A DNA stretch of 64,000 nucleotides from Deltaproteobacteria bacterium (lineage in GTDB: Bacteria; Myxococcota_A; Polyangia; Polyangiales; Houyiibacteriaceae): positions 31,098 to 95,097 of the forward strand of contig JAFDAJ010000002.1 in NCBI GenBank assembly GCA_019313915.1, given 5' to 3'. How positions within the stretch are numbered: the stretch's first letter is position 1; the number at the start of each line of letters is the position of its first letter. The translations under genes and the position numbers were made by a program. This document shows, piece after piece, positions 7,790 through 63,126 of the stretch. The notes beneath the pieces are model-generated. The model ran no database searches. It had not been told where the DNA came from and saw only the letters and a program-made list of their open reading frames with translations.

Positions 7790-8717
7790 GAAAGCACCGA
7801 AACCCTCTCAAATGGACCGATTTCAGCGCTTCTTGTTCCTGCGGACGATGCCGGCGCTCGCTGAGGTGCCGCCGGAAGTCTCCCAGGTCATCGCGGCGAA
7901 CACACGCGAGCGCTTCTTTGCGGAGGGGGAATACCTCTACCGAAGCGGCGTCCCCGCGCTCGAGATTCAATACGTGGTGAGCGGTGAGTGCGAGATCGTT
8001 CGCAACGGAAGAGCGGTGCGACGCTTGGGCGCGCGCAGCGTGGTCGGTGGAGTGAGCGCGCTCGCAGGTGAAGAGCTAGGTTACGACTGCATCGCACTCG
8101 AAGACATGGTTACACTCGCGATCGCCGTCGAAGATTCGCAAGAGATTTTCGAGGACCATTTCGTGCTACTCAAGCGCGTGCTCCGAGGAACCAGCCGCGA
8201 GGTGCTCGAGTCACGACGCAAGCTCGGACAAAGCGCCGGCTTTGGTCCGGTGGCCAAGCCGTTTGCTTTTCCCGATCGACCTTTCGATCTCGTCGAGCGA
8301 ATGGCATTCCTCCGAAAGACCCTTTCCTTTGGCGACAGCGAGATCGACGCAATCGCCGACCTCGCGCGTGACGTTCAAGAGGTCCACCTTCCCAAAGGCG
8401 AAGTCCTCTGGAACGTCGGCGATCGAAGCACGTACTTCCTGCTCCCGCTCCGCGGCGTCGTGGACTGCCAAGCCACCGACCCAGATCAACACTTCCAGCT
8501 CGGCCCAAGCGACTCCGTAGGCGCCATCGATGCCATGGCGGACGAGCGGCGCTGGTTCCGAGCCGAAGTCCTCGAAGACCTAGTCGCCTTCCGCATCGAC
8601 CAGGAGTCCCTCCTCGAGCTCCTCGAAGACCACTTCGCCATGGCCATGTCTCTCCTAAAAAGCATGGCCGCCGGCATCCTCCACCTATACGACCACGGAC
8701 ACTCTCCACCATCCTGA
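7782..8717 (+). CDS. Tandem cyclic-nucleotide-binding-domain-like protein without an output domain
   Basis: 311 aa; TTG start overlaps the upstream stop by 8 nt. Two cNMP-like modules (FLFLRTMPALAEVPPEV...GEYLYRSG; FLRKTLSFGDSEIDAIADLAR...GEVLWNVGD). The canonical FGE / R[ST]A phosphate-binding cassette is not obvious. Confidence 0.65.
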   Translation: MSEKAPKPSQMDRFQRFLFLRTMPALAEVPPEVSQVIAANTRERFFAEGEYLYRSGVPALEIQYVVSGECEIVRNGRAVRRLGARSVVGGVSALAGEELGYDCIALEDMVTLAIAVEDSQEIFEDHFVLLKRVLRGTSREVLESRRKLGQSAGFGPVAKPFAFPDRPFDLVERMAFLRKTLSFGDSEIDAIADLARDVQEVHLPKGEVLWNVGDRSTYFLLPLRGVVDCQATDPDQHFQLGPSDSVGAIDAMADERRWFRAEVLEDLVAFRIDQESLLELLEDHFAMAMSLLKSMAAGILHLYDHGHSPPS

Positions 8718-20034: not shown

Positions 20035-21123
20035 TTGTCGCACGGATGTGCAGCACGTTTTGGGGGGTCCTTTCGTCCTAAAATGTGGGTTTGGAGGGGC
20101 CCGGCAGATACGCTCTCGCCAGTGCTGCGTATCGCTCCGACAGTGCTTCTGGTCGCGCTGCTCTGGCCCCTGCTCAGCTCCTCTCAAGCGGAGCCCGCAG
20201 CGTTCTTCGGACAACCCGACGCCCATCGAATCGAGGCCTTGCGGACTTCGGAGATCGCCAAGGTGAAGAAGGGAAAGGGCGGCCGGAGCCTCGCCTTTCG
20301 GATCACGCTCGCGGATGGAACACGGGGCTATTTCAAACCCAAGCAAACCTTCTCGGCAGCCCATTGGTACTCCGAGGTAGCCGCTTACTACTTGGACCGC
20401 GAGCTCGGGTTGGGCCGGGTGCCACCGACGACTGGCCGCACGTTTGCATGGAGCGAGCTCCGAGCTGCGGCTGGCGACGACGACCGGGTGTCCGAGCTGG
20501 GAGTGGCGCCGGACGGCACCGTGAAAGGGGCGTTCATCTGGTGGATCCCCGAGTCATTGAAACGCGTTCGCATGGGACGGAAGTGGGAGCGTTGGGTGCG
20601 GGTTCAGAAGTCACTCCCGATTACGCCCTACCAACGGCCGGTGGACTATCGCGCCGACCTCAATCGGCGCCCCGGCATTCGCGAAGCCACCGACCCCAGC
20701 CGGGCTATCGCGAAGGAACCGGACATCGAGGGGAGGCCAGCCGAGCTATCCGACTTAATCATCTTCGACTACCTCACACAGAACGTCGACCGATGGGGTG
20801 GAGACTTCACCAACGTGCGTTCCCGCGGAGCAGGCGGACCGTTGATCTACTTGGACAACGGGGCTGGGTTCTGGCTTGGGGAACAGCGCTTGGGCTTGAT
20901 GGAGGCCCGGCTGAAGGCGCTTCAGCGATTCCGGCGATCGACGGTCGAGGCAGTTCGAAAGCTCGATATAGAACACTTTTCGTCCCGATTGCAGGGAGAT
21001 CCGCTCGCTCCCGTCTTGAACGAAAAGCAACTGGCTGGCCTCGATCAGCGCCGCCTCGCGGTCTTGCAGCACGTGGACGCGATGGTCGCGCGCTTCGGTG
21101 AGACCCGCGTCCTAGCGTGGTAG
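20035..21123 (+). CDS. Secreted Fam20/Four-jointed-like (protein-kinase-like fold) protein
   Basis: 362 aa (alternative ATG at 20083). Signal-like LRIAPTVLLVALLWPLLSSSQAEP. Blocks GYFKPKQ, HWYSEVAAYYLDRELGLGRVPPTTGR, IIFDYLTQNVDRWGG and LIYLDNGAGF resemble Fam20C hallmark blocks recalled from memory. Confidence 0.55.
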   Translation: MSHGCAARFGGSFRPKMWVWRGPADTLSPVLRIAPTVLLVALLWPLLSSSQAEPAAFFGQPDAHRIEALRTSEIAKVKKGKGGRSLAFRITLADGTRGYFKPKQTFSAAHWYSEVAAYYLDRELGLGRVPPTTGRTFAWSELRAAAGDDDRVSELGVAPDGTVKGAFIWWIPESLKRVRMGRKWERWVRVQKSLPITPYQRPVDYRADLNRRPGIREATDPSRAIAKEPDIEGRPAELSDLIIFDYLTQNVDRWGGDFTNVRSRGAGGPLIYLDNGAGFWLGEQRLGLMEARLKALQRFRRSTVEAVRKLDIEHFSSRLQGDPLAPVLNEKQLAGLDQRRLAVLQHVDAMVARFGETRVLAW

Positions 21124-21132
21124 GTTTCGCAA

Positions 21133-22131
21133 GTGAACGAACGACTTCGGCTTCCGGCGGAATGGGAGCCGCACAGCGCCTGCTGGCTCGCGTTTCCCTA
21201 CTTGCGGGAAGAGTGGCCGTTCAACCTTCCCGACGCGCAGCGTTCGATCGCTGCGCTGTCCCGCACCATCGCGGAAGTGGGCAACGAACCGGTGCAGCTC
21301 CTCGTGAAGAACGACGAGGTTGAAGAGCGTGCGCGTTCCTTGATCGGTGAGGTCTCCAACGTTCGATACGTGACGGCAGACTACGGTGACTGCTGGGTGC
21401 GCGACACAGCAGCAATGCTCGGGCACACGACAGATGGGGCGCTTGGTGGATTGTGTTTCGGGTTCAATGGCTGGGGCGGCAAATACCCGATCGCCTTCGA
21501 CGACACCGTGAGCGAGTGGCTAACGCATCGAATCGACGCCAGGCGATTCGAGTGTCCCGTCATCCTGGAGGGAGGTGCGCTCGAACCAGACGGCCAGGGA
21601 ACGTTCCTGACCACCACCTCTTGCGTCCTGAACGACAATCGAAATCCGGGGCTGACCCGCGAAGCCTTCGAGGAGGCGTTGAAAGCACTGATCTGCATGG
21701 ACCGCTTGGTTTGGCTCGACCGTGGACTGGCGCACGATCACACCGACGGGCACATCGACATGGTCGCCCGTTTTGTAGCGCCGAATACCGTGCTCTGCAT
21801 GAAGGCAACCGCCGGGGCGCCCAACGCGGCGGTCCTCGACTCCATCGAGCGAACGCTGCGCGCGAGTGGCCTGACCGTGCTCGAGCTCCCTGCGCCCTCG
21901 GCGATCTCGGCGCCCGACGGCGCGCCGCTACCGGCGAGCTACTGCAACTTTTACATCGCCAACGAGGCAGTGATCGTCCCCACGTATGGCATCCCCGAAG
22001 ACCAAACGGCCCTCGGCGAGCTCGCGAATGCGTTTCCCGGCCGCGAGGTGATCGGCTTGCCGGCTGCAGACCTGCTATGGGGAGGCGGAGCCTTTCACTG
22101 CGTCACCCAAGCTCAGCCCACCGCGCCATGA
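21133..22131 (+). CDS. aguA: Agmatine deiminase
   Basis: 332 aa, GTG start. Motifs LPAEWEPH, DCWVRD, TDGHIDM and C-terminal GGGAFHCVTQAQP (catalytic Cys). Confidence 0.9.
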   Translation: MNERLRLPAEWEPHSACWLAFPYLREEWPFNLPDAQRSIAALSRTIAEVGNEPVQLLVKNDEVEERARSLIGEVSNVRYVTADYGDCWVRDTAAMLGHTTDGALGGLCFGFNGWGGKYPIAFDDTVSEWLTHRIDARRFECPVILEGGALEPDGQGTFLTTTSCVLNDNRNPGLTREAFEEALKALICMDRLVWLDRGLAHDHTDGHIDMVARFVAPNTVLCMKATAGAPNAAVLDSIERTLRASGLTVLELPAPSAISAPDGAPLPASYCNFYIANEAVIVPTYGIPEDQTALGELANAFPGREVIGLPAADLLWGGGAFHCVTQAQPTAP

Positions 22132-30969: not shown

Positions 30970-31190
30970 GTTCTTACGATGCTACCGGAGCGTTCGCCGA
31001 CCACCAAGATCGGCGCAAATCTTGCGCATCGGCGACAAGGGGCGAAAGAACAGCGCGCCCTGTAGAAAACGTTTCTCAACAGAGATGATGTCCTTGTTTT
31101 TCTAGGCTTTGCGGAGTTAGAGTCACGTCGACCGGGTGGCCGGGAAACGTGCCACCGTGACCTTTGCTTTCGAACAGCGAGGAGGATCCG

Positions 31191-32321
31191 ATGGATGAAC
31201 CGGGAAGCGACTTTCGTCGTGAGCTAGAAGCGCGCGGCGTATCACGCCGCGAGTTCATGGGCTTCTGCTCTGCAATGGCAGTGATGTTTGGTTTGCCGAA
31301 GGGCGCGACGGCGATGATCGCCGAGGCACTCGAAAACAAACCCAAGCCAACATTGGTGTGGCTCAACTTCCAAGATTGCGCGGGCAACACCGAATCGTTC
31401 CTGCGGGCCAGCAAGCCGACTGCCGCAGAGGTGATCCTCGATCTGATCTCGATCGACTATCACGAGGTGATCATGGCGGCGGCCGGTCACCAAGCGGAGG
31501 AGAACCTCCGCTCGGTGGTGGAAAACCAGAAGGGTGCATACATCGCAGTCGTCGAGGGCTCGATCCCGACCGGAGCGAACGGCGCGTACTGCACCGTGGG
31601 CGGCAGGTCAGCGTCCCACATAGCCAACGAAGTTTGTGGCAATGCACTGGCGACGATTGCCGTCGGCACCTGTGCTTCGTTTGGCGGAATCCCCGCGGCC
31701 TCGCCGAATCCGACGGGCGCGCTTGGCGTTTCCGATGCGGTCCCAGGGATCAAGACCCTGATCAACCTTTCGGCCTGTCCGGTGAACGCGCAGAACCTCA
31801 CCGCAACGCTGGTCTACTTCCTGACCTACGGAAGGTTCCCAGCTCTCGACAAGCTGAATCGCCCGCTTTTTGCCTATGGAAAGTCGATTCACGACAACTG
31901 CGAACGGCGCGCGCACTACGACGCGGGGCAGTACGTCGAGCAATGGGGCGACGAAGCGCATCGCGACGGACAGTGTCTTTACAAGATGGGGTGCAAGGGC
32001 CCCGTCTCGTTCCAGAACTGCCCCAACATCGGTTGGAACGACAACACGAGCTGGCCGGTCGCATGCGGCCACGGTTGCATCGGCTGCGCAGAGCCGGACT
32101 TCTGGGACAAGATGACGCCGTTCTACGCGCACCTTCCAGGCTTCCCCGGCTTCGGCAAAGGTTCGGACATCGACAAGGTCGGCTTCTGGGCGACCGTTGG
32201 TGTCACCACCGCCTTCGCAACCCACACGTTGGTACACCTTGGAAAGAAGCTCGTTGGAACGGGTGCGGATCACGCGCCAGAAAGCCCGCCTGAGCGGACC
32301 GATGAAGGAGGCGCAGAATGA
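31191..32321 (+). CDS. hupS: [NiFe] uptake hydrogenase small subunit (group 1, Tat-exported, membrane-anchored)
   Basis: In-frame part of ORF 31164..32321; ATG 31191 is preceded by GAGGAGGA. Tat motif SRREFMGF. Aligns along its whole length with E. coli HyaA as recalled (LENKPKPTLVWLNFQDCAGNTESFLRA, GTCASFGGIPAA, HDNCERRAHYDAG, CLYKMGCKGP, GHGCIGCAEPDFWD). C-terminal TM VGFWATVGVTTAFATHTLVHL. Confidence 0.92.
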   Translation: MDEPGSDFRRELEARGVSRREFMGFCSAMAVMFGLPKGATAMIAEALENKPKPTLVWLNFQDCAGNTESFLRASKPTAAEVILDLISIDYHEVIMAAAGHQAEENLRSVVENQKGAYIAVVEGSIPTGANGAYCTVGGRSASHIANEVCGNALATIAVGTCASFGGIPAASPNPTGALGVSDAVPGIKTLINLSACPVNAQNLTATLVYFLTYGRFPALDKLNRPLFAYGKSIHDNCERRAHYDAGQYVEQWGDEAHRDGQCLYKMGCKGPVSFQNCPNIGWNDNTSWPVACGHGCIGCAEPDFWDKMTPFYAHLPGFPGFGKGSDIDKVGFWATVGVTTAFATHTLVHLGKKLVGTGADHAPESPPERTDEGGAE

Positions 32322-34024
32322 CTCATATCGTTGTCGATCCAGTGACCCGCATTGAAGGCCACTTGCGCATTGAAGCAGAAATCGACGGGGGCAAAGTCGC
32401 AGACGCTTGGTCTTCGTCGACGATGTTCCGCGGGATCGAAATCATTCTCCAAGGTCGAGACCCGCGTGATGCCTGGGCCTTCACCCAACGCATCTGCGGC
32501 GTCTGCACGACGGTGCACGCCATCGCTTCGATTCGCGCAGTGGAAGATGCGATCGGCGCGAAACCGCCGCCCAATGCACGAATCCTTCGCAACCTGATCA
32601 TCGCGTCCCAGTGCATCCAGGACCACGTGATCCATTTCTATCACCTGCACGCGCTCGATTGGGTCGACATCGTGTCGGCGCTCGACGCCGATCCGAAGGA
32701 GACCGCGGCACTCGCACAATCGATTTCGGATTGGCCGCTGTCGAGTGCGACGTACTTCAAGGGCATTCAGGACCGAGTGAAAGGGCTGGTCGAGCGTGGG
32801 CAGCTTGGGCCGTTTGCCAACGCATACTGGGGCCATTCGGCGTACAAGCTCCCTCCGGCTGCGAATCTGATGGCGCTGGCGCACTATCTCGAGGCACTCG
32901 AGTGGCAGCGCGAGTTCATCAAGATGCACGCCATTCTCGGCGGGAAGAACCCTCACCTGCAGAGCTTCTTGGTCGGCGGTATGGCGACTCCGGTCGACCC
33001 GGACGCACAGGCTTCGCTCAACATTCACACGATCGCGCACTTCAAGAAGCTCATCGCGGGCGCGCAGGAGTTCGTGAGCAAGGTGTACATTCCAGATGTG
33101 CTTGCGGTCGCCTCGTTCTACAAAGACTGGGCTGGATACGGCGCAGGTGTAGGCAACTACATGGTGTACGGCGAGTACCCGCTCGACGACGAAGCCGATC
33201 CAGAGCTCTACCTTCCGTCGGGTATCATTCGCGCCCGCGACCTCTCGAAGGTGGAAGAGTTCGATCCGTCGAAGATCACCGAGCAGATCACGCACTCCTG
33301 GTACGATTACGCAGGCGGAGCAGACGCAGCGCTTCATCCGTCCGAGGGCGAAACCAACCCGAATTACACCGGACCGGAGCCACCCTACGAACGATTGGAC
33401 ACCGGGAAGAAGTACTCCTGGCTGAAGTCGCCACGTTACGACGGCGCGCCGATGGAAGTCGGGCCTTTATCACGGATGTTGGTCTCCTACGTTCGCGGTC
33501 ACGAGAAAGTGCAGGGCCTCGTCAATCACGTGCTCAAGACACTCGGGGTTGGGCCCGAAGCCTTGTTCTCGACGCTTGGACGAGTTGCGGCGCGCGCAAT
33601 TGAAACGCAGTTGTTGGTCGACAAGATCGGCGACTGGGTCGACGAGCTGGCCGACAACATGGGCAAGGGCGAGCTTCGCATCCACGACAACAGCAAATGG
33701 GAGCCAGAGAGCTGGCCGGCCGACTGCATGGGAGCGGGTTTCCACGAAGCGCCGCGCGGCGCGCTTGGCCACTGGGTCCACGTCAAAGACGGCAAGATCG
33801 CGCGCTACCAATGTGTGGTTCCGAGCACCTGGAACGCCGGACCGCGGGACTCGGGTGACGTACCCGGCCCGTACGAGGCAGCCCTGGTCGGGACCCCGGT
33901 GGCGGACCCCGAGCAACCGATTGAGATCCTGAGAACGGTTCATTCTTTCGACCCGTGTATGGCTTGCGCTGTGCACGTCGTCGAACCTGGAGGGCGCGAG
34001 ATCACTCGCGTGAAGGCGCGATGA
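32318..34024 (+). CDS. hupL: [NiFe] hydrogenase large subunit
   Basis: 568 aa. N-terminal VDPVTRIEGHLRIE and RICGVCTTVH (L1/L2 Ni-Fe ligand motifs). C-terminal DPCMACAVH followed by a 15-aa extension (protease-cleaved tail). Confidence 0.95.
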   Translation: MTHIVVDPVTRIEGHLRIEAEIDGGKVADAWSSSTMFRGIEIILQGRDPRDAWAFTQRICGVCTTVHAIASIRAVEDAIGAKPPPNARILRNLIIASQCIQDHVIHFYHLHALDWVDIVSALDADPKETAALAQSISDWPLSSATYFKGIQDRVKGLVERGQLGPFANAYWGHSAYKLPPAANLMALAHYLEALEWQREFIKMHAILGGKNPHLQSFLVGGMATPVDPDAQASLNIHTIAHFKKLIAGAQEFVSKVYIPDVLAVASFYKDWAGYGAGVGNYMVYGEYPLDDEADPELYLPSGIIRARDLSKVEEFDPSKITEQITHSWYDYAGGADAALHPSEGETNPNYTGPEPPYERLDTGKKYSWLKSPRYDGAPMEVGPLSRMLVSYVRGHEKVQGLVNHVLKTLGVGPEALFSTLGRVAARAIETQLLVDKIGDWVDELADNMGKGELRIHDNSKWEPESWPADCMGAGFHEAPRGALGHWVHVKDGKIARYQCVVPSTWNAGPRDSGDVPGPYEAALVGTPVADPEQPIEILRTVHSFDPCMACAVHVVEPGGREITRVKAR

Positions 34025-34761
34025 CTCCCCCGCCGGCAGCCGCAGTGAAGGGAGGGGCGCGCCCCCAGGTGAGCCCTCGGCGTCGGGATGTAGAGGGAAT
34101 CGAGCGGGTCTACGTCTGGGACCTCCTGGTCCGGATGAGCCACTGGATCATCATGATCTCGGTTTTCATGCTCGCGTTCACCGGAATCTACATCGGCGAG
34201 CCGTTCTTGATCCCTGCAGGGCCGGAGAACGAGCAGTTCGTCATGGCGACGATGAAGACCGTGCACTTCTACGTGGCGATCATCTTCGCGCTTACGGTGG
34301 CAAGCCGAATCGCATGGATGTTCGTCGGTTCCTACTATGCGCGTTGGCATCAGTTCGTGCCGATGAGCCCGCGGCGGCGTCGTGACGTCTTCGGCATGCT
34401 GAAGTTCTATTCGTTGCTCAGCAAGGAACCACCGCTCAACGTTGGTCACAACCCGCTGGCCGGCATGACCTACCTGGCGGTGTTCGGTCTTTACCTCACC
34501 ATGATCTTCACCGGCTTCGCTCTCTACTCGGTGAGCGCGGTTGGCTACATGCAGATGTGGGAATTCCTGCTCCCGATCTTCGGGGGCGCCCAGATGGCGC
34601 GTTGGATCCATCACTTGGCGATGTGGTTCCTTCTCGGGTTCGTGGCTCACCACATCTGGAGCGCGATGCTCGTGTCTCGCGTCGAAGGAATGGGGCTGAT
34701 CGACTCGCTATTCAGCGGCTACAAGTTCCTGCCCAAGAGCTGGCGCAACCGGGATGAGTGA
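34021..34761 (+). CDS. hupC: Ni/Fe-hydrogenase b-type cytochrome subunit
   Basis: In-frame part of ORF 33955..34761; ATG 34021 overlaps the hupL stop (ATGA). 246 aa, 4 TM, conserved His (RMSHWIIM, VHFYVA, GHNPLAG, WIHHLAMW). Confidence 0.88.
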   Translation: MTPPPAAAVKGGARPQVSPRRRDVEGIERVYVWDLLVRMSHWIIMISVFMLAFTGIYIGEPFLIPAGPENEQFVMATMKTVHFYVAIIFALTVASRIAWMFVGSYYARWHQFVPMSPRRRRDVFGMLKFYSLLSKEPPLNVGHNPLAGMTYLAVFGLYLTMIFTGFALYSVSAVGYMQMWEFLLPIFGGAQMARWIHHLAMWFLLGFVAHHIWSAMLVSRVEGMGLIDSLFSGYKFLPKSWRNRDE

Positions 34762-35299
34762 ACGCACGCCGGTCCTCGTCTTGGGGCTCGGCAACGTCGT
34801 CTGCACGGACGACGGCGCCGGTATTGCCGCGATCCACAAGCTGATTCGAGAGTACGACATGCCTGAAGGCGTCGTTGCGCTCGACGGCGGAACGCTCGGC
34901 CTCTCGCTTCTTCCTCTCGTGGACAGCGCGGATCAGGTGATTCTGGTCGACGCAATCAGCGCGGACGGGTCACCGGGCACTCAGGTCCGCATCGAAGGCG
35001 ACGAGGTGGCTCCAGCCGTGTACGAGCGACTTTCCCCGCACCAAATTGGGGTCGCCGACCTGCTCGCGGGGGCTAGTCTGCTCGACCGGTATCCCGACCG
35101 CGTGGTGATCCTCGGCGTCGTGCCCGACTCCATCGAGCTCGGGCTGGAGCGAACACCTGCGGTTCAGGCGAGCATTCCGGAGCTAGTCGAACGCATCGTG
35201 GAAGAGCTGACCGCTATGGGATACCCGCCGGTTCGATCGGAGAATCGCGATGAAGGCTATGGGAGCGCTGCTCATATCGCTCGCACTCTCGGCGTGTAG
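34754..35299 (+). CDS. hupD: Hydrogenase maturation endopeptidase (HyaD/HupD)
   Basis: 181 aa. Shows VLVLGLGNVVCTDDGAGI, ALDGGTLGL and LSPHQIGVADLL. Confidence 0.9.
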   Translation: MSERTPVLVLGLGNVVCTDDGAGIAAIHKLIREYDMPEGVVALDGGTLGLSLLPLVDSADQVILVDAISADGSPGTQVRIEGDEVAPAVYERLSPHQIGVADLLAGASLLDRYPDRVVILGVVPDSIELGLERTPAVQASIPELVERIVEELTAMGYPPVRSENRDEGYGSAAHIARTLGV

Positions 35300-35648
35300 C
35301 ACCGGGGACGCTTCATCGACGATCGACTACGGCACGGTTGAGGTTCCCGTGGGTCGGCTCTCGTCCGATGACGCGCGAGGCCGGGGCCGCACGCTGTTTA
35401 GAAAGAGGTGCGCGCTTTGCCACGGCGAGCGCGCCGACGGACATGGCGCACGACGAGAGGGCTTGTCCGGCAAGCCGATCAACTTCCACAACAAGGAATG
35501 GCGGGCGAACGTCACACCACTGCGTGTGTTCGAGGTATTGAGCGAAGGCAAACGCGGGACGTCGATGCCGGCCTGGCCGACGCTGAGCACCGAGCAGAAG
35601 TGGGATGTCACCGCTTATGTTCTCAGCGTGGCTGAGGACGGTCCGTGA
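35250..35648 (+). CDS. Monoheme class-I c-type cytochrome lipoprotein
   Basis: 132 aa. Lipobox LLISLALSAC, heme motif CALCHG, distal Met context GTSMPAW. The start overlaps the hupD 3' end by ~40-50 nt. Confidence 0.75.
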   Translation: MKAMGALLISLALSACSTGDASSTIDYGTVEVPVGRLSSDDARGRGRTLFRKRCALCHGERADGHGARREGLSGKPINFHNKEWRANVTPLRVFEVLSEGKRGTSMPAWPTLSTEQKWDVTAYVLSVAEDGP

Positions 35649-37924
35649 TGGCGGGGCGTCGAATTGAGATTCGAGGAACGGTGCAGGGCGTCGGGTTTAG
35701 GCCCTGGGTCCACGGTGTCGCGCGGTGCGCCGGCGTCACAGGGAGGGTGCGAAACGACCCGCGCGGTGTGACGATCGAGGCTTTTGCCGATGAGGACGTG
35801 CTAGAGGGTTTTCTCGAGCAATTACGGGCAGGTGCGCCGCCGCCCGCGAGGGTTGTAGAGCTCCGCTCGACGCCGATTCCCGAAGTGGAGCTGGACGACT
35901 TCGTCATCGAATCGAGCGGCGCCACGGGGGACAAGGCCCTGTCCATTTCGCCAGACCTGGCGACGTGCACCGAGTGCGAGGCCGAGGTCTTGGACCCAAG
36001 CAATCGCCGCTACGGCTACGCGTTCACCAACTGCACGAGGTGCGGCCCGCGGTTCACGATTGCAACGGGGATCCCATACGACCGCGCAGCGACGACGATG
36101 TCGGCGTTCGAGATGTGCCCCGCCTGTCGCCGGGAATATGACGACGTCGAAGACCGACGCTTTCACGCTCAACCCAACGCGTGCCCGGAATGCGGACCGT
36201 CGTTGAGTCTCGTCGGTCTCGGCGGCGATCTGGATCCCGCCACCGATCCGGTGGGCGCCACCGCCGACCTCTTGAAGCGCGGTGCTGTCGTCGCCATCAA
36301 AGGCTTGGGCGGGTTTCATCTTGCGTGCGATGCGAACGATGCAGCCGCGGTGCAGCTTCTACGTGAGCGTAAGCACCGCGACGAAAAGCCGTTCGCGGTG
36401 ATGACCGGCGACCTAGATGCAGCGCGACAGCTCGCAGAGCTGACGCCCGAAGAAGAGGTCTTGCTGACCGCGCCCGAGCGCCCGGTAGTCCTCGTGCGCG
36501 CCCGGCCCGAGACAGGTCTGGCCCGCGATGTGAGCCTGGAAAGCCCGCTTCTAGGGCTCTTTTTGCCCTATACGCCGCTGCATCACCTGCTGTTGGCTGC
36601 AGTTGACGGGCCCCTCGTAATGACCTCTGCGAACGTGTCGGACGAGCCGATTTGCCGTGACAACGACGAGGCCGAGCGCCGGCTAACGGGGATTGCGGAT
36701 GCCATCTTGCTGCACGACCGCGATATCGCGATGCGTTGTGACGACTCGGTCGTGCGAGTGATTGCGGGCACGCCCACGATCATACGGCGTTCTCGAGGCT
36801 TCGTCCCGCGTCCTTTTCAGTTGGCGCGACCGGTCGCTCAACCGGTGCTCGCTTGCGGCGCGCACCTCAAGAACACGTTTTGCATTGCATCTGGAGATAC
36901 TGCTTACTTCGGTCCCCACATCGGCGATTTGGAAACGGTTGCTGCGCTCGACTTCTTCGAGGAAGCCATCGACCGAATGCAAACGATTCTTGGAGTTCGC
37001 CCGCAAGTGGTCGCCCATGACCTGCACCCCGGGTACATGTCGACGCGATACGCGAAAGCTCTCGCGGATTCCGTTCAGGTCGGGGTGCAGCATCATCACG
37101 CCCATGTTGCGAGCGTGATGGCGGAGCACCGGGTTTGCGGGCCGGTGCTTGGCGTTGCTTATGATGGCACGGGTTTTGGGGACGACGGGACGTCTTGGGG
37201 CGGCGAGTTTTTGCTGTGTTTTCCGAACCGTTTCGAACGTCTGGCAACATTTCGACCCGTGCGTTTGCCAGGGGGCGATCGGGCGATGCGAGAGGTGTGG
37301 CGAATTGCCTACGCAATGTTGCACGACGCGTTTGACGGCAGTCCGCAGATCGACTCGCTTCCCTTGTTCCGCGGTATTGCGCCAGAGTCGATTCGGATCG
37401 TGTCCCAGATGATCGAGCGAGATCTCAACGCGCCGCGCGCGCGCGGCGTAGGTCGCTATTTCGACGGGTTCGGGTCGCTCGCGCTGGGACGCCCGGTGTC
37501 GACGTACGAAGGTCAGGTTGCAATCGCCTGGGACCACATGGCGAGTGACGAGGCGTGCGACCCCTACCCGTTTGCACTCGACCGCAGCACGTCGCCGATG
37601 GAAGTCGATTTACGGCCCGCGGTGCGCGCGGCCTTCGAGGAAGTGGTGTCGGGTATGTCCCCGGCACACGTGTCTGCGCGTTTTCACAACACCGTCGTGA
37701 CGGTCACGGTAGAGGTCCTGGAGGCGCTCCTGGCAGAACTTGGACGCCTCCCTGTGGCCCTGACGGGCGGGGTTTTCCACAACGAACGGCTCGCAGCGGG
37801 AGTTGCGGAGAACTTACGTAATGATATCCGTGTGTTACGACACGGCCAAGTCCCGCCGGGGGACGGTGGAATTGCTCTCGGTCAGGCCTTGATCGCGGAC
37901 GCGTTTCTGGGAGACAAAGGTTGA
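35645..37924 (+). CDS. hypF: [NiFe] hydrogenase maturation carbamoyltransferase HypF
   Basis: 759 aa. Acylphosphatase-like N-terminus (IRGTVQGVGFRPWV), two zinc fingers (CTECEAEVLDPSNRRYGYAFTNCTRCGPRF; CPACRREYDDVEDRRFHAQPNACPECGP), and YrdC and Kae1-like domains. Confidence 0.95.
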   Translation: MMAGRRIEIRGTVQGVGFRPWVHGVARCAGVTGRVRNDPRGVTIEAFADEDVLEGFLEQLRAGAPPPARVVELRSTPIPEVELDDFVIESSGATGDKALSISPDLATCTECEAEVLDPSNRRYGYAFTNCTRCGPRFTIATGIPYDRAATTMSAFEMCPACRREYDDVEDRRFHAQPNACPECGPSLSLVGLGGDLDPATDPVGATADLLKRGAVVAIKGLGGFHLACDANDAAAVQLLRERKHRDEKPFAVMTGDLDAARQLAELTPEEEVLLTAPERPVVLVRARPETGLARDVSLESPLLGLFLPYTPLHHLLLAAVDGPLVMTSANVSDEPICRDNDEAERRLTGIADAILLHDRDIAMRCDDSVVRVIAGTPTIIRRSRGFVPRPFQLARPVAQPVLACGAHLKNTFCIASGDTAYFGPHIGDLETVAALDFFEEAIDRMQTILGVRPQVVAHDLHPGYMSTRYAKALADSVQVGVQHHHAHVASVMAEHRVCGPVLGVAYDGTGFGDDGTSWGGEFLLCFPNRFERLATFRPVRLPGGDRAMREVWRIAYAMLHDAFDGSPQIDSLPLFRGIAPESIRIVSQMIERDLNAPRARGVGRYFDGFGSLALGRPVSTYEGQVAIAWDHMASDEACDPYPFALDRSTSPMEVDLRPAVRAAFEEVVSGMSPAHVSARFHNTVVTVTVEVLEALLAELGRLPVALTGGVFHNERLAAGVAENLRNDIRVLRHGQVPPGDGGIALGQALIADAFLGDKG

Positions 37925-37943: not shown

Positions 37944-38267
37944 ATGTGCTTAGGTGTCCCAGGCAAGGTGATCGAGGTCGACCGCGAGATGCAAATCGCG
38001 ACCGTCGACTTCTGGGGTGTGAAGAAGCAGGTGCGACTCGAGGTCTGTGACGCGCCCGTCGATCCAGGCGACTTCATCTTGAACCACGTCGGCTTTGCGA
38101 TTCGCCGGATCCCCCCGGAGGAGGCAGCCGAGACCTTGGCGCTGTATGACGAGCTGCTTCGGCTGGCCGACGAGCAGGATTTGATGACCGCTGACGTTCG
38201 CGCTGAGCTCGATGCGTCACCCGATGCAACGGAGTCACCCAACGGAGCGCGCAATGATGGCGAGTGA
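37944..38267 (+). CDS. hypC: Hydrogenase assembly chaperone HypC/HupF with an acidic C-terminal tail
   Basis: 107 aa; starts MCLGVPGKVIEV (essential Cys2). About 25 extra acidic residues at the C-terminus. Confidence 0.9.
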   Translation: MCLGVPGKVIEVDREMQIATVDFWGVKKQVRLEVCDAPVDPGDFILNHVGFAIRRIPPEEAAETLALYDELLRLADEQDLMTADVRAELDASPDATESPNGARNDGE

Positions 38268-39402
38268 CACATTCGCTCAGCTGAAGTTCCGAGACCCTGC
38301 ACGCGCGCGCGGACTGCGAGACACGCTCGATCGGCTCGTCCAGCAAGCGGATCATGCCCCGGTCTCGGTCATGCACGTGTGCGGAAGCCATGAGCAGGCG
38401 ATCGCAAAGTTCGGGCTCAGAGCCGCTTTCCCCGAAGATTTGCAGGTGATCATGGGCCCTGGCTGTCCGGTCTGCGTCACCGATATCCCGGAAGTGGATG
38501 AGGCAGTCGCACTTGCGAAACAGGGCGTTCGCATTGCGTCGTACGGCGACATGCTACGCGTGCCAGGGACCTCACAATCGCTTGCGGACGCGAAAGCAGA
38601 GGGCGCAAAGGTCGACGTCGTGTACAGCGTGACGCAGGCGGTAGACCTCGCGCGCAATCACGACGAGGAAATCGTCTTCTTCGCCTCGGGCTTCGAAACG
38701 ACGGCGGTCGCGACGGCGGCCATTCTGGTCGATGACCCCCCCGACAACTTCTCCGTGCTGTCTGCACACAAGTACATCCCGCCGGTGATGGAGATTGTCG
38801 CGGAGATGCCGGAGACGAAGGTCGAAGGATTTCTCGCTGCGGGACACGCGGCGACGATCACCGGGTCGGCCGTGTTCGAGAAGTTTGTCGAGCGTCACGG
38901 CCTGCCGGTCGTGATTGCTGGCTTTGAACCGCTCGATGTCCTGGCGGGCCTGGTAAAGCTCCTCGAGGTCATCAACAGTGGCGAACCGCGTGTGGAAAAC
39001 GCCTTTCCCCGTTGCGTGACGCGCGAAGGCAACGTTCAGGCACAGAAGCTTCTCTGGAAGGTGTTCCGGCCCACGGGTGGGCGCTGGCGAGGCATTGCGC
39101 ACGTGCCCAACGGGAACCTCCGCTTGCGAGACGAGTTCGCGCAGTACGACACGCGGAAGCGCTTCACCATCGACGCATCTGCACTTTGGCAGTACGCGCC
39201 GCCCAAGCTCGTGCAGCAGTGTCAGTGCGGCGACATCATGGCGGGCATCTCATCGCCGTCGAGCTGCCAGCTCTTTGGCAAACAGTGCACGCCGGACGCC
39301 CCGGTGGGCGCATGCATGGTGAGCGCCGAAGGCACCTGCAGGATCTGGCATCAGTACGGCGGGCGCCCGGACCTGCGTTCGATCAAGCGAGGCGCCGCAT
39401 GA
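38254..39402 (+). CDS. hypD: Hydrogenase maturation factor HypD
   Basis: In-frame part of ORF 38212..39402; ATG 38254 overlaps the hypC end. Shows FRDP, MHVCGSHEQAI, GPGCPVCVT, FETTA and C-terminal CxxHxxxxxC-type Cys motifs. Confidence 0.92.
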   Translation: MMASDTFAQLKFRDPARARGLRDTLDRLVQQADHAPVSVMHVCGSHEQAIAKFGLRAAFPEDLQVIMGPGCPVCVTDIPEVDEAVALAKQGVRIASYGDMLRVPGTSQSLADAKAEGAKVDVVYSVTQAVDLARNHDEEIVFFASGFETTAVATAAILVDDPPDNFSVLSAHKYIPPVMEIVAEMPETKVEGFLAAGHAATITGSAVFEKFVERHGLPVVIAGFEPLDVLAGLVKLLEVINSGEPRVENAFPRCVTREGNVQAQKLLWKVFRPTGGRWRGIAHVPNGNLRLRDEFAQYDTRKRFTIDASALWQYAPPKLVQQCQCGDIMAGISSPSSCQLFGKQCTPDAPVGACMVSAEGTCRIWHQYGGRPDLRSIKRGAA

Positions 39403-40439
39403 CGCGGAATGCACGATTGGTCGACGAACGGATCACGCTGAAGTACGGCACAGGTGGAGGCGCAATGCGCGCGCTGATCGAGCAGGTCTTCGCCAAAGGC
39501 TTGGGCGACGTCGGGGACGACGGCATCGGCCTGCAGGCGATGGACGACGGCGCCGCTATCCGCCTCGGCGACCAGTATTTGGTGATCGCAACCGACTCGC
39601 ACGTCGTTCAACCGATCGAGTTCCCAGGAGGCGATATCGGGCGCCTTGCGATCTCCGGAACAGTGAATGATCTCGCCATGATGGGGGCGACGGAGCCGCT
39701 GGCTCTGACCTGCGCAGTCATCATCGAAGACGGCTTCGAACGCGACGTGTTGAAGCGGATTTGGGAGTCGATTCGCGCGACGTGCGAGGAAGCCGGAACG
39801 ACGATCGTGACCGGGGACACGAAAGTGATGGGACACGGAGAGCTCGACGGCTTGGTTCTGAACACGACGGGCGTCGGGCTCACGAAGCGTGTGGTGTCGG
39901 ATGCCGGGCTTCGACCGGGCGATAAGATTCTGGTTACGGGAACGATGGGTGATCACGGACTCGCGATCATGGCGACCCGGAACGAGCTGGCTTTAGAGAC
40001 GACGCTCGAGTCCGACGTCGCGCCGGTGCACACGTTGGTGCGGCGGGCGCTCGACATCGGAGGGGAGGGCGTCGTGGCATTGAAGGACCCTACGCGCGGT
40101 GGCTTGTCGAGCGCGTTGCACGAGATGGCCGACAAGAGCAATGTCGGGATCATCATCGACGAGACCCTCGTTCCGCTCCGTGACGAGGTTCGCGCCGTCG
40201 GTGAGCTCCTCGGAATCGATCCCCTGGTGTCGGCAAACGAAGGCAAGGCGGTCTTCGGGCTGCGACCCGACTGCGCTGAGGGCGTGCTCGACGCCGTCCG
40301 ATCGCATCCGCTAGGTCGGAATGCGGCAATTGTGGGCGAATGCGTGTCCGAACGACCGGGCTTCGTGGTGCTCGATACCGGGTTCGGGAGCCGGTTGTTG
40401 GCGGAAGCAGAGGGTGAGCTCCTCCCGAGGATCTGCTGA
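39399..40439 (+). CDS. hypE: Hydrogenase maturation factor HypE
   Basis: In-frame part of ORF 39012..40439; ATG 39399 overlaps the hypD stop (ATGA). 346 aa with a PurM-like fold. Ends ...ELLPRIC, the C-terminal PRIC motif typical of HypE. Confidence 0.93.
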   Translation: MTRNARLVDERITLKYGTGGGAMRALIEQVFAKGLGDVGDDGIGLQAMDDGAAIRLGDQYLVIATDSHVVQPIEFPGGDIGRLAISGTVNDLAMMGATEPLALTCAVIIEDGFERDVLKRIWESIRATCEEAGTTIVTGDTKVMGHGELDGLVLNTTGVGLTKRVVSDAGLRPGDKILVTGTMGDHGLAIMATRNELALETTLESDVAPVHTLVRRALDIGGEGVVALKDPTRGGLSSALHEMADKSNVGIIIDETLVPLRDEVRAVGELLGIDPLVSANEGKAVFGLRPDCAEGVLDAVRSHPLGRNAAIVGECVSERPGFVVLDTGFGSRLLAEAEGELLPRIC

Positions 40440-40442
40440 GCG

Positions 40443-41294
40443 ATGGGCAAGATGGAGCAGATGAAGCATATCCGAATCGAGCGAGAAGGCGCCGTTGGCA
40501 TCCTTACGATCGCGCGCCGTGAGCGCCTCAACTCACTCGATGTGGAGACGGCGCAAGACTTCCGCAGAGCGGGGCTTCAGCTCGCACGTGACCGAGACGT
40601 ACGCGCCGTGTTGATCCGTGGCGAAGGTGGTGTGTTCTGCAGCGGCGCTGACTTGAAGTACATCCGCGACGGCGGCGACCGAGACGATCTAGGATACCTG
40701 CAGCCCGATACCCGCAAACCGGATGAAGGCTACGGAGAAATCTTCAAACAGATCCTCGAGTACATTCACAGCACGATCTCGGAGATCCGGAGAGCGCCGA
40801 AACCGTTCATCGCCGCGGTCGATGGGCCGGCGGCTGCTGGCGGTTTTGGAATTGCGATGAGTTGCGACCTGGTCATCGCGTCCGAACGCGCGTGGTTCGA
40901 GTGGGCCTACTTCAAGACCGGGCTCACCGGCGCAGAGAGCTCGACTTTCTTCTTGCCCCGTTTGGTAGGCCTTCGAAAGGCGCTCGAGCTGGTGCTCTTG
41001 AACCCGCGCCTAACCGCGCGCGACGCCCTTGACTGGGGCCTGATTAACCGAGTAGTTCCGGATGGTTCGCTTGATTGTGAGGCATTGAAAATTGCGACCC
41101 AACTTGCGAAATCGCCCACTGCGGCAGTCGGTGTAGCCAAGAACCTCCTCAACCAGGCCGCAGGGATGGATCGCCTGGACGTTCATCTCGACGCCGAGCT
41201 CACGGAGCTCGCACGGATCGCAGACGGTCCAAACTTTGCCGAAGGCCTTGCTGCCTTCTTCGAGAAACGCTCACCGGAGTTTGAAAGCGAGTAG
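40443..41294 (+). CDS. Crotonase-fold (enoyl-CoA hydratase/isomerase superfamily) protein embedded in the hyp cluster
   Basis: 283 aa. Shows AVLIRGEGGVFCSGADL (oxyanion-hole region) and FIAAVDGPAAAGGFGIAMSCDLVIA. In my by-eye alignment to rat ECH, the two hydratase glutamates are replaced by Gly and Tyr. Confidence 0.8.
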   Translation: MGKMEQMKHIRIEREGAVGILTIARRERLNSLDVETAQDFRRAGLQLARDRDVRAVLIRGEGGVFCSGADLKYIRDGGDRDDLGYLQPDTRKPDEGYGEIFKQILEYIHSTISEIRRAPKPFIAAVDGPAAAGGFGIAMSCDLVIASERAWFEWAYFKTGLTGAESSTFFLPRLVGLRKALELVLLNPRLTARDALDWGLINRVVPDGSLDCEALKIATQLAKSPTAAVGVAKNLLNQAAGMDRLDVHLDAELTELARIADGPNFAEGLAAFFEKRSPEFESE

Positions 41295-41297
41295 CCC

Positions 41298-41645
41298 GTG
41301 CACGAGTACTCCATCGTCGCTTCTTTGATCGATCGCGTGCAGCAGGAAGCTGCCGTCCATGGTGGCACTCGCGTGCATCGCTTGCATGTGAAGATAGGTG
41401 AGCTGTCAGGGGTGGAGCTCGACTTGTTGAAGACCGCCTTCGAGACGTTTCGTGAGCGAACGATTTGTGATGGGGCGGAGCTCGCGATCGACCGCGTTGC
41501 TGCGTCCTGGGCTTGCCCCTCATGCAAGCGTCCGGTCCTGCGTGGTGCGATCCTGCGGTGTGACACGTGTGGACGACCTGCGCGCATGGTCGAGGGAGAC
41601 GAGATCATCTTGGAGCGAATTGAAATGGAGGCCCCCGATGTGTGA
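41298..41645 (+). CDS. hypA: Hydrogenase nickel-insertion protein HypA
   Basis: 115 aa, GTG start. N-terminal MHEYSI (Ni-binding MHE) and zinc site CPSC...CDTCG. Confidence 0.92.
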   Translation: MHEYSIVASLIDRVQQEAAVHGGTRVHRLHVKIGELSGVELDLLKTAFETFRERTICDGAELAIDRVAASWACPSCKRPVLRGAILRCDTCGRPARMVEGDEIILERIEMEAPDV

Positions 41646-42384
41646 AACGTGCGGATGCGGTGACCCGGAAATCGTTCCCATCGAGGTACAGGAACGGATC
41701 CTGTCCGACAACGATGCCCAGGCGGACCATAATCGGAGTCATTTCCAAGGCTTAGGGCTCTTGGCGATCAACTTGATGGGGTCCCCGGGCGCGGGAAAAA
41801 CCGCGGTGCTCGAAGCCACTGCCAAGGAAGCCGGTGGGCGCCTCAAGCTCGGTGCCGTCAGCGGCGACCTCGCGACCGAGCGGGACGCCGATCGACTGAA
41901 CGCGTCGGGGATCGTCTCTGCAACGATTACAACCGGGTCGGCCTGCCATCTCGACGCCCGTCTCGTGCATCGTGCTTTGCATGACTTCCCGGTGAGCGAC
42001 CGCGACATCTTCTTCATCGAGAACGTTGGCAACCTAGTGTGCCCGGCGATCTATGATCTGGGCCAAGCGGCGAACGTCGTCACGCTGTCGGTTACCGAAG
42101 GCGAAGACAAGCCGCTCAAGTACCCGGTGATGTTTCAAAAGGCCGACCTGGTGTTGCTCACCAAAGTCGACTTGCTTCCGCACCTCGACTTCGACGTAGC
42201 AGCGGTCGAGGACGCCCTCGCGCGCGTGATGCCCGGAGCCAATTTGCTCAAGGTCTCGGCCAAAACCGGGGAAGGCATCGACGCCTGGCTGCAGTGGCTC
42301 GAAGAGCGGCGCCCGGCTCCGGTCGAGCAAGCAACCGAGGGACATGTGCATCATCATCACGAGCACCAGCATGAACACCGCTAG
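41638..42384 (+). CDS. hypB: Hydrogenase nickel-insertion GTPase HypB
   Basis: In-frame part of ORF 41452..42384; the ATG overlaps the hypA end by 8 nt. N-terminal MCETCGCG (high-affinity metal site), P-loop GSPGAGKT, NVGNLVCPA, and a His-rich tail HVHHHHEHQHEH. Confidence 0.93.
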   Translation: MCETCGCGDPEIVPIEVQERILSDNDAQADHNRSHFQGLGLLAINLMGSPGAGKTAVLEATAKEAGGRLKLGAVSGDLATERDADRLNASGIVSATITTGSACHLDARLVHRALHDFPVSDRDIFFIENVGNLVCPAIYDLGQAANVVTLSVTEGEDKPLKYPVMFQKADLVLLTKVDLLPHLDFDVAAVEDALARVMPGANLLKVSAKTGEGIDAWLQWLEERRPAPVEQATEGHVHHHHEHQHEHR

Positions 42385-61977: not shown

Positions 61978-63126
61978 CTAGATGCGCATGGGCATGATGA
62001 CGCCGATGAAGTCGGAATTGTCGCCGACCGGCTTCAGCACCCCTGGGTCACGCTCTCCGCTGAGCTCGATTGCGATCTCGTCGTATGGCAATGCGCTAAG
62101 CGCGTCGAGTAGATACCGCGCGTTGAAGCCGATCTTCAGCTCATCGCCCGCATAGTCGACATCAACCTCTTCGCTACCTTCGCCAACCTCGGGGTTCTGG
62201 CTCTGGAGCCGCAACATTCCGGGTTCGATCGTCAACTGCACGCCGCCGCTCTTGTCGTTGGCCACCAAGCTGATGCGCTTCAACGCCTCGACCAACGGTC
62301 CCCGAGCAGCAATGATCGTCCGGCTCTGCTTGCTTGGGATCACTTTGTTGTACGGCGGGAAGTTCTCGTCGGCGAGCTTCACGCTCAAGCAAAGGTCCTC
62401 ACGCTGAAAGAATGCGTTTCCGCCGGCGGTCGCGATGCCGATGGTGGACGCGTCATCGCCCTTGCCCTTCCCCGTTTTGACGTCGTCAAGGAGCCGCTTG
62501 AGCTCACCGATGCCCTTGTGCGGGATCAGCATACTGAAATTCATCATCGAACCCTTGCCGCTGACCTTGTGCTCGGCCTTTGACAGGCGATGGCCGTCGG
62601 TGGTCACCATCCGGACCACTTTGCCGTCACCCTCGAAGAGCGTCCCGGCGAGATGCGGGCGAGTATCATCATGAGACATCGAATACTGCGTCAGTGAAAT
62701 CAGCTCGGCGAGACGTCCGGCATCGAGATGCGCGAAATCCGCATCGCCCGGATTCGGCAGCGGCGGGAAATCTTCGCCGGGCATGGCGGGGATACGGTAG
62801 CGCACCTTTCCGCAACTGAGTTCCACCGCGTGGGTGTCGCTGAGCTTCCAGCTGACCTCTCCATCGGGGAGGTTCTTGACGATGTCGAAGAGCGTTCGTG
62901 CGGCGACTGCGATCGTGCCACCCTTCTTGATGTTCGCAGGAACGACTGCGGTCACGCCGAGGTAGAGATCGGTGGCGGACAAACGAAGACGGTCAGGTCC
63001 TTCAGCTGTAAGCAACACATTGGACAAGATGTGCATCGAGCTTTTGCGATCAGCTACACCGTGGGTACGCGTGAGACCACGGAGGAACTGCTGCTTGTCG
63101 ATTGTGAGCTCCATGTTTCGGTTCAC
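61978..63126 (-). CDS. dnaN: DNA polymerase III beta sliding clamp
   Basis: 382 aa, GTG start. Typical three-domain clamp (ILSNVLLTAEGPDRLRLSATDL...; C-terminal GVIMPMRI). Lies between oriC and recF. Confidence 0.95.
   Translation of the reverse strand: MNRNMELTIDKQQFLRGLTRTHGVADRKSSMHILSNVLLTAEGPDRLRLSATDLYLGVTAVVPANIKKGGTIAVAARTLFDIVKNLPDGEVSWKLSDTHAVELSCGKVRYRIPAMPGEDFPPLPNPGDADFAHLDAGRLAELISLTQYSMSHDDTRPHLAGTLFEGDGKVVRMVTTDGHRLSKAEHKVSGKGSMMNFSMLIPHKGIGELKRLLDDVKTGKGKGDDASTIGIATAGGNAFFQREDLCLSVKLADENFPPYNKVIPSKQSRTIIAARGPLVEALKRISLVANDKSGGVQLTIEPGMLRLQSQNPEVGEGSEEVDVDYAGDELKIGFNARYLLDALSALPYDEIAIELSGERDPGVLKPVGDNSDFIGVIMPMRI

Follow-up and report, generated by a model that had tools for sequence, protein, structure and literature searches.

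Which kind of proximal iron-sulfur cluster does a [NiFe]-hydrogenase have when its small subunit carries asparagine in place of one of the expected cysteine ligands, and is that asparagine a defect of the gene or a feature of its family? The question is raised by a locus in contig JAFDAJ010000002.1 (GenBank assembly GCA_019313915.1), of which a stretch of 64,000 nucleotides was analyzed (positions 31,098 to 95,097 of the forward strand; hereafter, the window). Judging from its sequence, the locus encodes a membrane-bound, cytochrome-b-linked uptake [NiFe]-hydrogenase of an uncultured Myxococcales bacterium, exported through the twin-arginine translocation (Tat) pathway. Asparagine at mature position 20 of its small subunit is a lineage signature of the group 1f hydrogenases and not a lesion, and the substitution is unusual only when set against textbook enzymes. 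All coordinates below are window positions, and all features of the hydrogenase locus are on the plus strand.

Asparagine at the second proximal ligand position

The small-subunit gene (31191..32321; 376 amino acids, ATG start; VGFWATVGVTTAFATHTLVHL) follows a ribosome-binding site, AGGAGGA (31180..31186), that can be read directly from the sequence, and its product carries a Tat signal as well as a hydrophobic anchor at the C terminus. The protein scores 409.6 bits against TIGR00391 (cut-off, 179.5 bits) and matches every solved group 1 small subunit among the PDB chains, the best match being the enzyme of Desulfovibrio vulgaris Miyazaki F (E = 9e-96); the domains PF01058 and PF14720 are found in all 120 of its 120 small-subunit homologues. 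The Tat signal peptide, which spans residues 1 to 46 (31191..31328), includes the motif SRREFM and a hydrophobic stretch and would be cleaved between AEA and LENKPKP. The mature start predicted in this way aligns with the mature N-termini of Escherichia coli HyaA and Cupriavidus necator HoxK.

The proximal motif of the mature protein reads C-A-G-N. Its first ligand, Cys63 (mature Cys17; codon TGC, 31377..31379), occupies an invariant alignment column, whereas the position of the second cysteine ligand is taken by Asn66 (mature Asn20; codon AAC, 31386..31388); the mature numbers 17 and 20 match the E. coli Hyd-1 numbering. This reading goes back to an original prediction that had placed the protein colinearly beside the sequence of E. 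coli HyaA. The HyaA sequence given there is correct, both codons are as described, and the register is borne out by phmmer alignments to the D. vulgaris Miyazaki F chain (1h2a_S) and the C. necator MBH chains, which are gapless across query residues 10 to 113 and in which Asn66 falls opposite the second Cys of CTGC/CTCC. A misalignment was considered and rejected, as the alignment has no gap in this region and its flanks are strongly conserved. An exact look-up of the small-subunit sequence returned no database record; the large subunit is present on metagenome contigs of the Joint Genome Institute (JGI).

Eleven of the 12 cluster ligand positions in the small subunit are canonical, as the original prediction had stated, the exception being the second proximal one, and across the aligned clade the ligands at the other positions do not vary. 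The third proximal ligand is Cys161 (mature Cys115; 31671..31673) in the motif GTCASFGG, and the fourth is Cys196 (mature Cys150), which opens the tripeptide Cys196-Pro-Val198 (31776..31784, with Val198 at 31782-31784). The distal ligands His234, Cys237, Cys262, and Cys268 (31890..31994) follow the standard pattern of a [4Fe-4S] cluster held by three Cys and one His, and the medial ligands Cys277, Cys296, and Cys299, with Pro289 at the fourth position (32019..32087, a stretch that also includes Cys292), follow the [3Fe-4S] pattern. The two extra cysteines of O2-tolerant enzymes are indeed absent, both positions being Gly in the alignment: Gly65 and the Gly in GTCASFGG that comes next and stands for the supernumerary Cys120 of group 1d.

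Group 1f membership and distribution of the substitution

Conservation of the asparagine in the orthologous clade, which the original prediction had proposed to check, is high. Among the 120 closest database homologues (67 to 91% identity), position 66 is Asn in 117, Asp in 2, and Cys in 1. A genome scan with one genome per species returned 80 loci, 78 of them with a readable motif, and there the counts were 55 Asn, 20 Asp, and 3 Cys; the nearest of these loci, with 88 to 95% identity, come from Myxococcales metagenome-assembled genomes. Across the loci, Asn is encoded by AAC (49 loci) or AAT (6 loci) and Asp by GAT (13 loci) or GAC (7 loci), and this use of both synonymous codons for either residue indicates that the amino acid itself is conserved. 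The 93-member clade that includes this protein has 65 Asn, 24 Asp, and 3 Cys at the site, and relatives with about 70% identity to the query can differ from it (Cys in P0084 and Asp in P0090 and P0118). The clade pattern is one of Asn in most phyla (Myxococcota, Acidobacteriota, Gemmatimonadota, Proteobacteria, Chloroflexota, and some Nitrospirota), Asp in Geobacter/Desulfuromonadales-type organisms, and an occasional return to Cys.

When sequences are clustered at 50% identity, the representatives that span the site include roughly 70 with Cys, 21 with Asn, 12 with Asp, and 1 with Glu. Outside the main clade, Asn or Asp is also present in no fewer than three lineages, and the occurrence of Asn, Asp, or Glu there indicates that the substitution arose, or was kept, several times. 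The proteins in question are P0203, P0211, P0245, P0259, P0127, P0137, P0142, P0153, P0154, P0162, and P0265, of which P0154 reads C-A-G-E, with Glu at the second proximal position, and P0245, P0203, and P0259 belong to a separate Tat-bearing Asn/Asp lineage that, among PDB chains, matches [NiFeSe]-type enzymes best.

The substitution has already been published as a hallmark of groups 1f and 2a. The replacement of this Cys by Asn or Asp was reported for the group 1f enzymes of Roseiflexus, Geobacter, and Frankia, and Asn at the same proximal position for group 2a (Mohammadi et al. 2016/17, PMC5364354); the split of taxa between Asn and Asp seen here agrees with that statement. A Cys-to-Asn change in Nostoc HupS and a Cys-to-Asp change in a Geobacter enzyme, both at proximal position 2, had been listed earlier (Yonemoto et al. 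2014, PMC4070099, Table 1). The original prediction had taken Asn for an unusual feature of this particular gene, and that view has to be abandoned, as Asn or Asp is carried by the group 1f clade and is on record for both groups. The text of the HydDB paper gives no ligand details, and the papers found to mention group 1f included no biochemical or structural study of it; nor was any group 1f enzyme found among the PDB small-subunit matches.

Membership in group 1f was examined with neighbor-joining trees on corrected p-distances with 100 bootstrap replicates, a crude method, using as references the enzymes of D. vulgaris Miyazaki F (1b), E. coli Hyd-2 (1c), E. coli Hyd-1 and C. necator MBH (1d), RH (2b), and AH (1h). 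Both subunits cluster with loci from Roseiflexus, Chloroflexaceae, Geobacteraceae, Trichlorobacter, and Desulfuromonadales; in the large-subunit tree, whose references are HyaB, HybC, HoxG, HoxC, and HofG, with none from groups 1a and 1e, group 1f is represented by metagenome-assembled genomes that bear the names Roseiflexus, Geobacteraceae, and Trichlorobacter and not by HydDB entries. The exact bipartition of the 93-member clade was recovered in only 12 of 100 replicates, probably owing to fragmentary and rogue representatives, and we therefore relied on a weaker but more relevant split, that of the query with the Roseiflexus and Geobacter-type sequences from all references, which was found in 89 of 100 replicates for the small subunit and 73 of 100 for the large one. 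Small-subunit identity is 62 to 77% within the clade, compared to 45 to 51% with the 1b, 1c, and 1d references, 36% with 1h, and 28% with 2b, and the large subunit shows 64 to 87% identity within the clade versus 48 to 49% with 1c and 1d. Because Roseiflexus and Geobacter-type sequences, the published examples of group 1f, share the clade with it, the enzyme was filed under this group. By sequence, it is an ordinary group 1f member, with metagenome loci, in lieu of the HydDB reference set, standing in for 1f.

The traits of the group agree with this placement. A b-type cytochrome is encoded after the large subunit, the second proximal Cys is replaced (Asn66), and the small subunit has the twin-arginine signal of group 1 enzymes, from which export is predicted. 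Compared to the group 1f enzymes known from Geobacter sulfurreducens (Hya), Roseiflexus, Frankia (synton-3), and Acidobacterium ailaaui, which HydDB classifies as "oxygen-protecting," the Asn/Asp site and the Tat signal are the same, the gene order is that of the Frankia island-lineage synton-3, and nothing essential differs. The Myxococcales subclade has its own features, namely, L-N-F-Q-D instead of L-E-F-Q-D before the Cys, the extra Cys292, and a cytochrome c gene after the protease gene.

Other groups were considered and rejected. The standard and O2-tolerant membrane enzymes of groups 1b, 1c, and 1d are the best PDB matches (45 to 51% identity) and share the fold, domain order, Tat signal, and medial and distal ligands with this enzyme, as well as, in the case of group 1d, the cytochrome b partner. 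However, all of them have Cys20, and group 1d adds Cys19, Cys120, and the large-subunit Glu73, which are replaced here by Gly, Gly (in alignments to the 8pow/8poy variants and the wild type), and Gln, respectively; the large subunit keeps His at the position of Hyd-1 H229 and scores 612 bits against NF007550, whose cut-off is 1101. Against group 1c (Hyb-type) stand the scores for NF007779 (339 versus 659) and NF007778 (623 versus 969), the cytochrome b partner, and the lack of HybA/HybB genes between the subunits. All these scores fall far short of the equivalog thresholds that NCBIfam sets for Hyd-1 and Hyd-2.

Of the group 2a traits, which are the absence of a signal peptide and Asn, Lys, and Gln at the fourth proximal, medial, and distal ligand positions, this enzyme has only the proximal Asn. 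HucS of Mycobacterium smegmatis (7UTD, 7UUR, 7UUS, and 8DQV), whose sequence was retrieved by means of a 46-residue probe and a chimeric query, is a weak match to the query (107 bits versus 324 for the best PDB match); its motif is C-S-G-N, the same C-x-G-N as here, but it lacks a Tat signal and has Lys at the fourth medial position and Gln at the position of the distal His, where this enzyme has a Tat signal, Pro289, and His234. Nostoc HupSL, also of group 2a, is cytoplasmic and without a Tat signal, with the same medial Lys and distal Gln, according to published summaries. Group 1h was likewise rejected. HofK of C. necator (5AA5_A; sequence taken from plasmid pHG1) reads C-D-G-D, so that the use of Asp at the proximal cluster in group 1h, brought up in the original prediction, concerns this very position; but the 1h enzyme, AH, has Asp and not Asn, lacks a Tat signal, and shows only 36% identity in the small subunit and 31% in the large one.

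Two further observations concern the surroundings of the site. The residue after Cys196-Pro is something other than Pro (C-P-V, C-P-A, or C-P-M) in all 102 of the sequences whose position 66 is Asn, Asp, or Glu, while 47 of 69 sequences with Cys at this position read C-P-P; HucS (CPA) and HofK (CPV, as in this enzyme) obey the same rule. This second-sphere change indicates that the proximal pocket was remodeled alongside the ligand change in several independent lineages. A C-C-G-N variant, in which Cys occupies mature position 18 and not position 19 as in O2-tolerant enzymes, is found mainly in relatives from Acidobacteriota (loci L008, L015, L016, L026, L029, and L030; proteins P0020, P0095, P0114, and P0119).

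The nature of the proximal cluster

The precedents for a cluster at this kind of site do not agree. HucS (chains 7utd_B/7uur_D) is the only solved chain with Asn at the site among all PDB small-subunit matches. In the 1.52 Å map of Huc, all three clusters, including the proximal one, are [3Fe-4S], and its electron paramagnetic resonance (EPR) spectra contain no [4Fe-4S]+ signal after reduction with H2 (PMC10017518). In contrast, EPR of the recombinant HupS of Nostoc punctiforme, as summarized in two papers, led to the assignment of a 3Cys+Asn proximal [4Fe-4S] cluster, which turned into [3Fe-4S] only after the C12P mutation (PMC6616624, PMC6695573). In HofK, the proximal [4Fe-4S] cluster is held by three Cys and one Asp, and this Asp is needed for O2 insensitivity (PMC11023054). 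The original prediction had named an established subgroup that both carries and explains the substitution as the outcome that would refute it. Group 1f does carry it; as for an explanation, the two group 2a precedents disagree, the [3Fe-4S] cluster of Huc conflicting with the 3Cys+Asn [4Fe-4S] cluster of HupS.

By analogy with Huc, we infer that the proximal cluster is most likely a three-thiolate cluster of raised potential, of the Huc-like [3Fe-4S] type, and give this reading about an even chance of being correct. It is preferred because the native, high-resolution structure of Huc outweighs the spectroscopy of recombinant HupS and because group 1f is tied to the uptake of H2 under aerobic and sub-atmospheric conditions, as reported for Acidobacterium ailaaui, in which aerobic H2 oxidation proceeds down to sub-atmospheric levels (PMC6776052; PMC7174314). 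With such a cluster, only the thiolates of Cys17, Cys115, and Cys150 would hold the proximal irons, the carboxamide of the asparagine would face the fourth corner, and the relay would consist of a proximal [3Fe-4S], a medial [3Fe-4S], and a His-ligated distal [4Fe-4S] cluster (3Fe-3Fe-4Fe). Loss of the thiolate-bound iron would be expected to raise the potential and to bias the enzyme so that, at high potential, it oxidizes H2 and is less inclined to produce it; high-potential relays are currently associated with oxidation bias (PMC11023054), and a bias of this kind would fit reports that organisms with group 1f enzymes take up H2 aerobically and at sub-atmospheric levels. Electrons would then leave the distal cluster for cytochrome b and the quinone pool, and the lipoprotein cytochrome c encoded in the operon may serve as an additional, periplasmic acceptor.

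Several points weigh against this picture. Nostoc HupS has the same Asn and, like HucS, medial Lys and distal Gln, and yet it was assigned a [4Fe-4S] cluster (as summarized in PMC6616624 and PMC6695573), and Asp at the same position ligates a [4Fe-4S] cluster in group 1h (5AA5; PMC11023054). The group 1f site toggles among Asn, Asp, and Cys only, sometimes between close relatives, which is most simply read as all three residues acting as the fourth ligand. Huc was purified in air, so that loss of iron from a labile site is possible. Finally, Huc is unlike the enzyme studied here at the medial and distal sites and in its cellular location: it is a cytosolic-side oligomer that reduces menaquinone directly, without a cytochrome b (PMC10017518).

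Much of this evidence speaks for a complete proximal [4Fe-4S] cubane, in which the fourth iron would be bound by the carboxamide O or N of Asn20 and Asn, Asp, and Cys would be interchangeable fourth ligands that tune the potential and the O2 behavior. This is in essence the 3Cys+Asn cluster of the original prediction, which thus survives as one of two live readings, the other being the Huc-like [3Fe-4S] cluster; we regard it as a serious possibility, held with somewhat less than even confidence. Beyond the assignment of HupS, which has the same Asn, and the 3Cys+Asp cluster of HofK, required there for O2 insensitivity, it draws on the restriction of the site to Asn, Asp, and Cys throughout the clade, where close relatives have switched between them several times, and on the Alteromonas hydrogenase, which remained measurably active when the natural-type Cys-to-Asn and Cys-to-Asp changes were engineered into it (PMC4070099). 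On the other side of the scale, the sole atomic structure with C-x-G-N shows [3Fe-4S], and the Nostoc assignment comes from a recombinant small subunit and not from the native holoenzyme. Besides, Asn is a rare and weak iron-sulfur ligand.

It is improbable that a different fourth ligand completes the cluster while Asn only shapes the pocket, whether that ligand is water or hydroxide, a residue of the large subunit, or a neighboring Cys such as one at mature position 18. Such an arrangement could draw on the at least 10 relatives that read C-C-G-N, on the remodeled pocket, in which Asn or Asp at position 66 never goes together with Pro next to Cys196-Pro, and on the large-subunit His retained at the position of Hyd-1 H229. 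However, position 18 of this enzyme is Ala and not Cys, and a scan of every Cys-containing column for a compensating cysteine found none that gains Cys specifically with Asn or Asp at position 66. Two clade-specific cysteines were examined as substitute ligands and rejected. Cys149 (31635-31637), found in 61 of 65 Asn-type, 16 of 24 Asp-type, and none of the outside sequences, occurs with any of Asn, Asp, and Cys at position 66. Cys292 (32064-32066), four residues ahead of the medial Cys296, is enriched in Asn-type sequences (42 of 65, versus 2 of 24 Asp-type and none outside) but lies beside the medial and not the proximal ligands. Since no Cys column tracks the state of position 66, there appears to be no hidden fourth thiolate.

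That the asparagine might stem from an assembly or sequencing error, a misalignment, or the decay of the gene found no support and can be considered refuted, with a negligible residual probability: a change from TGC to AAC requires two base changes, Asn recurs in 117 of the 120 homologues and, with both of its codons, in 55 of the 78 loci, the alignment of the region is gapless, and nothing else is damaged, neither the remaining ligands and the Ni-Fe cysteines nor the Tat signal, the protease, and the full hyp set.

A bolder proposal, which taken as a whole we consider rather doubtful, would extend the Huc-like [3Fe-4S] cluster to the Asn-type 1f enzymes in general. These would be periplasm-facing, cytochrome-b-anchored enzymes with adjacent high-potential [3Fe-4S] clusters at the proximal and medial sites, followed by a His-ligated [4Fe-4S] cluster, and codon 20, with its choice of Asn, Asp, or Cys, would act as a natural 3Fe/4Fe switch. 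The Asn form, paired with the lipoprotein cytochrome c and an extra Cys by the medial cluster in lineages from aerobic soil and sediment, would take up H2 on the membrane's outer face with high affinity and insensitive to O2, much as Huc does. If this were true, the 3Fe-3Fe-4Fe relay of the Asn-type group 1f enzymes would be undescribed in any solved hydrogenase.

Operon context and significance

The large-subunit gene (32318..34024; 568 amino acids) encodes all four Ni-Fe ligands (C60, C63, C547, and C550), has Gln at the position of Hyd-1 E73, and overlaps the stop codon of the small-subunit gene with its start codon as ATGA, which suggests translational coupling. It is followed by genes for a HyaC-like, b-type cytochrome membrane subunit (34021..34761; 246 amino acids; TIGR02125, 137 bits against a cut-off of 121.5), a HyaD/HybD-type maturation endopeptidase (34754..35299; TIGR00072 and TIGR00140), and a monoheme c-type cytochrome whose signal, LSLALSAC, resembles that of a lipoprotein and whose heme motif is CALCH (35250..35648; PF13442 and PF00034). 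On the JGI metagenome contigs with the identical large subunit, independent gene calls agree on the lengths of the first four genes, including 376 amino acids for the small subunit and 246 for cytochrome b. In all 69 related loci whose flanks are long enough to show it, the genes for the small subunit, large subunit, cytochrome b, and protease keep this order. The cytochrome c gene follows the protease gene in 28 of 42 Asn-type loci, whereas the Asp-type loci gave weak matches in 4 of 13 cases and the Cys-type loci in none of 3.

The maturation genes hypF (35645-37924), hypC (37944-38267), hypD (38254-39402), hypE (39399-40439), hypA (41298-41645), and hypB (41638-42384) come next, each named from its recognizable sequence and from tblastn matches in related loci. 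Between hypE and hypA lies a gene of the enoyl-CoA hydratase/isomerase family (40443-41294; ECH Pfam match). Homologues of this gene adjoin hyp genes in related loci as well (tblastn; for example, L003, L029, L037, and L046), and it has no obvious part in hydrogenase maturation.

The window has a G+C content of 62%, and its remainder is made up of housekeeping genes, such as sdhA/B-like genes, uvrB, dnaJ, and dnaN, with one tRNA-Ala. The dnaN gene, for the beta clamp of DNA polymerase III, is located near the right-hand end of the window (61978-63126, minus strand), and from this position the chromosomal replication origin region may be nearby. Also found in the window are a gene for an 883-residue protein that combines a TLC-type ATP/ADP-transporter-like region with HEAT repeats (5138-7789, plus strand), followed by one for a cyclic-nucleotide-binding protein (7782-8717), and a gene for a 362-residue protein with a modest match to the C-terminal domain of the Fam20C "Golgi casein kinase" (20035-21123, plus strand; E = 1.3e-10), which adjoins a gene of the Porphyromonas-type peptidyl-arginine deiminase family (21133-22131).

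For this gene, the result is mainly its correct annotation, as part of a group 1f uptake hydrogenase operon with maturation genes, and the interest of the substitution lies at the level of group 1f and not of the single gene. Group 1f is abundant, with Asn or Asp in about 90 of the 93 sampled clade members across many phyla. Whether a [3Fe-4S] cluster is what C-x-G-N specifies could be tested cleanly on an Asn-type 1f enzyme, as could whether the proximal potential sets H2 affinity, catalytic bias, and O2 behavior, a question that is relevant to the design of air-stable catalysts for H2 oxidation.

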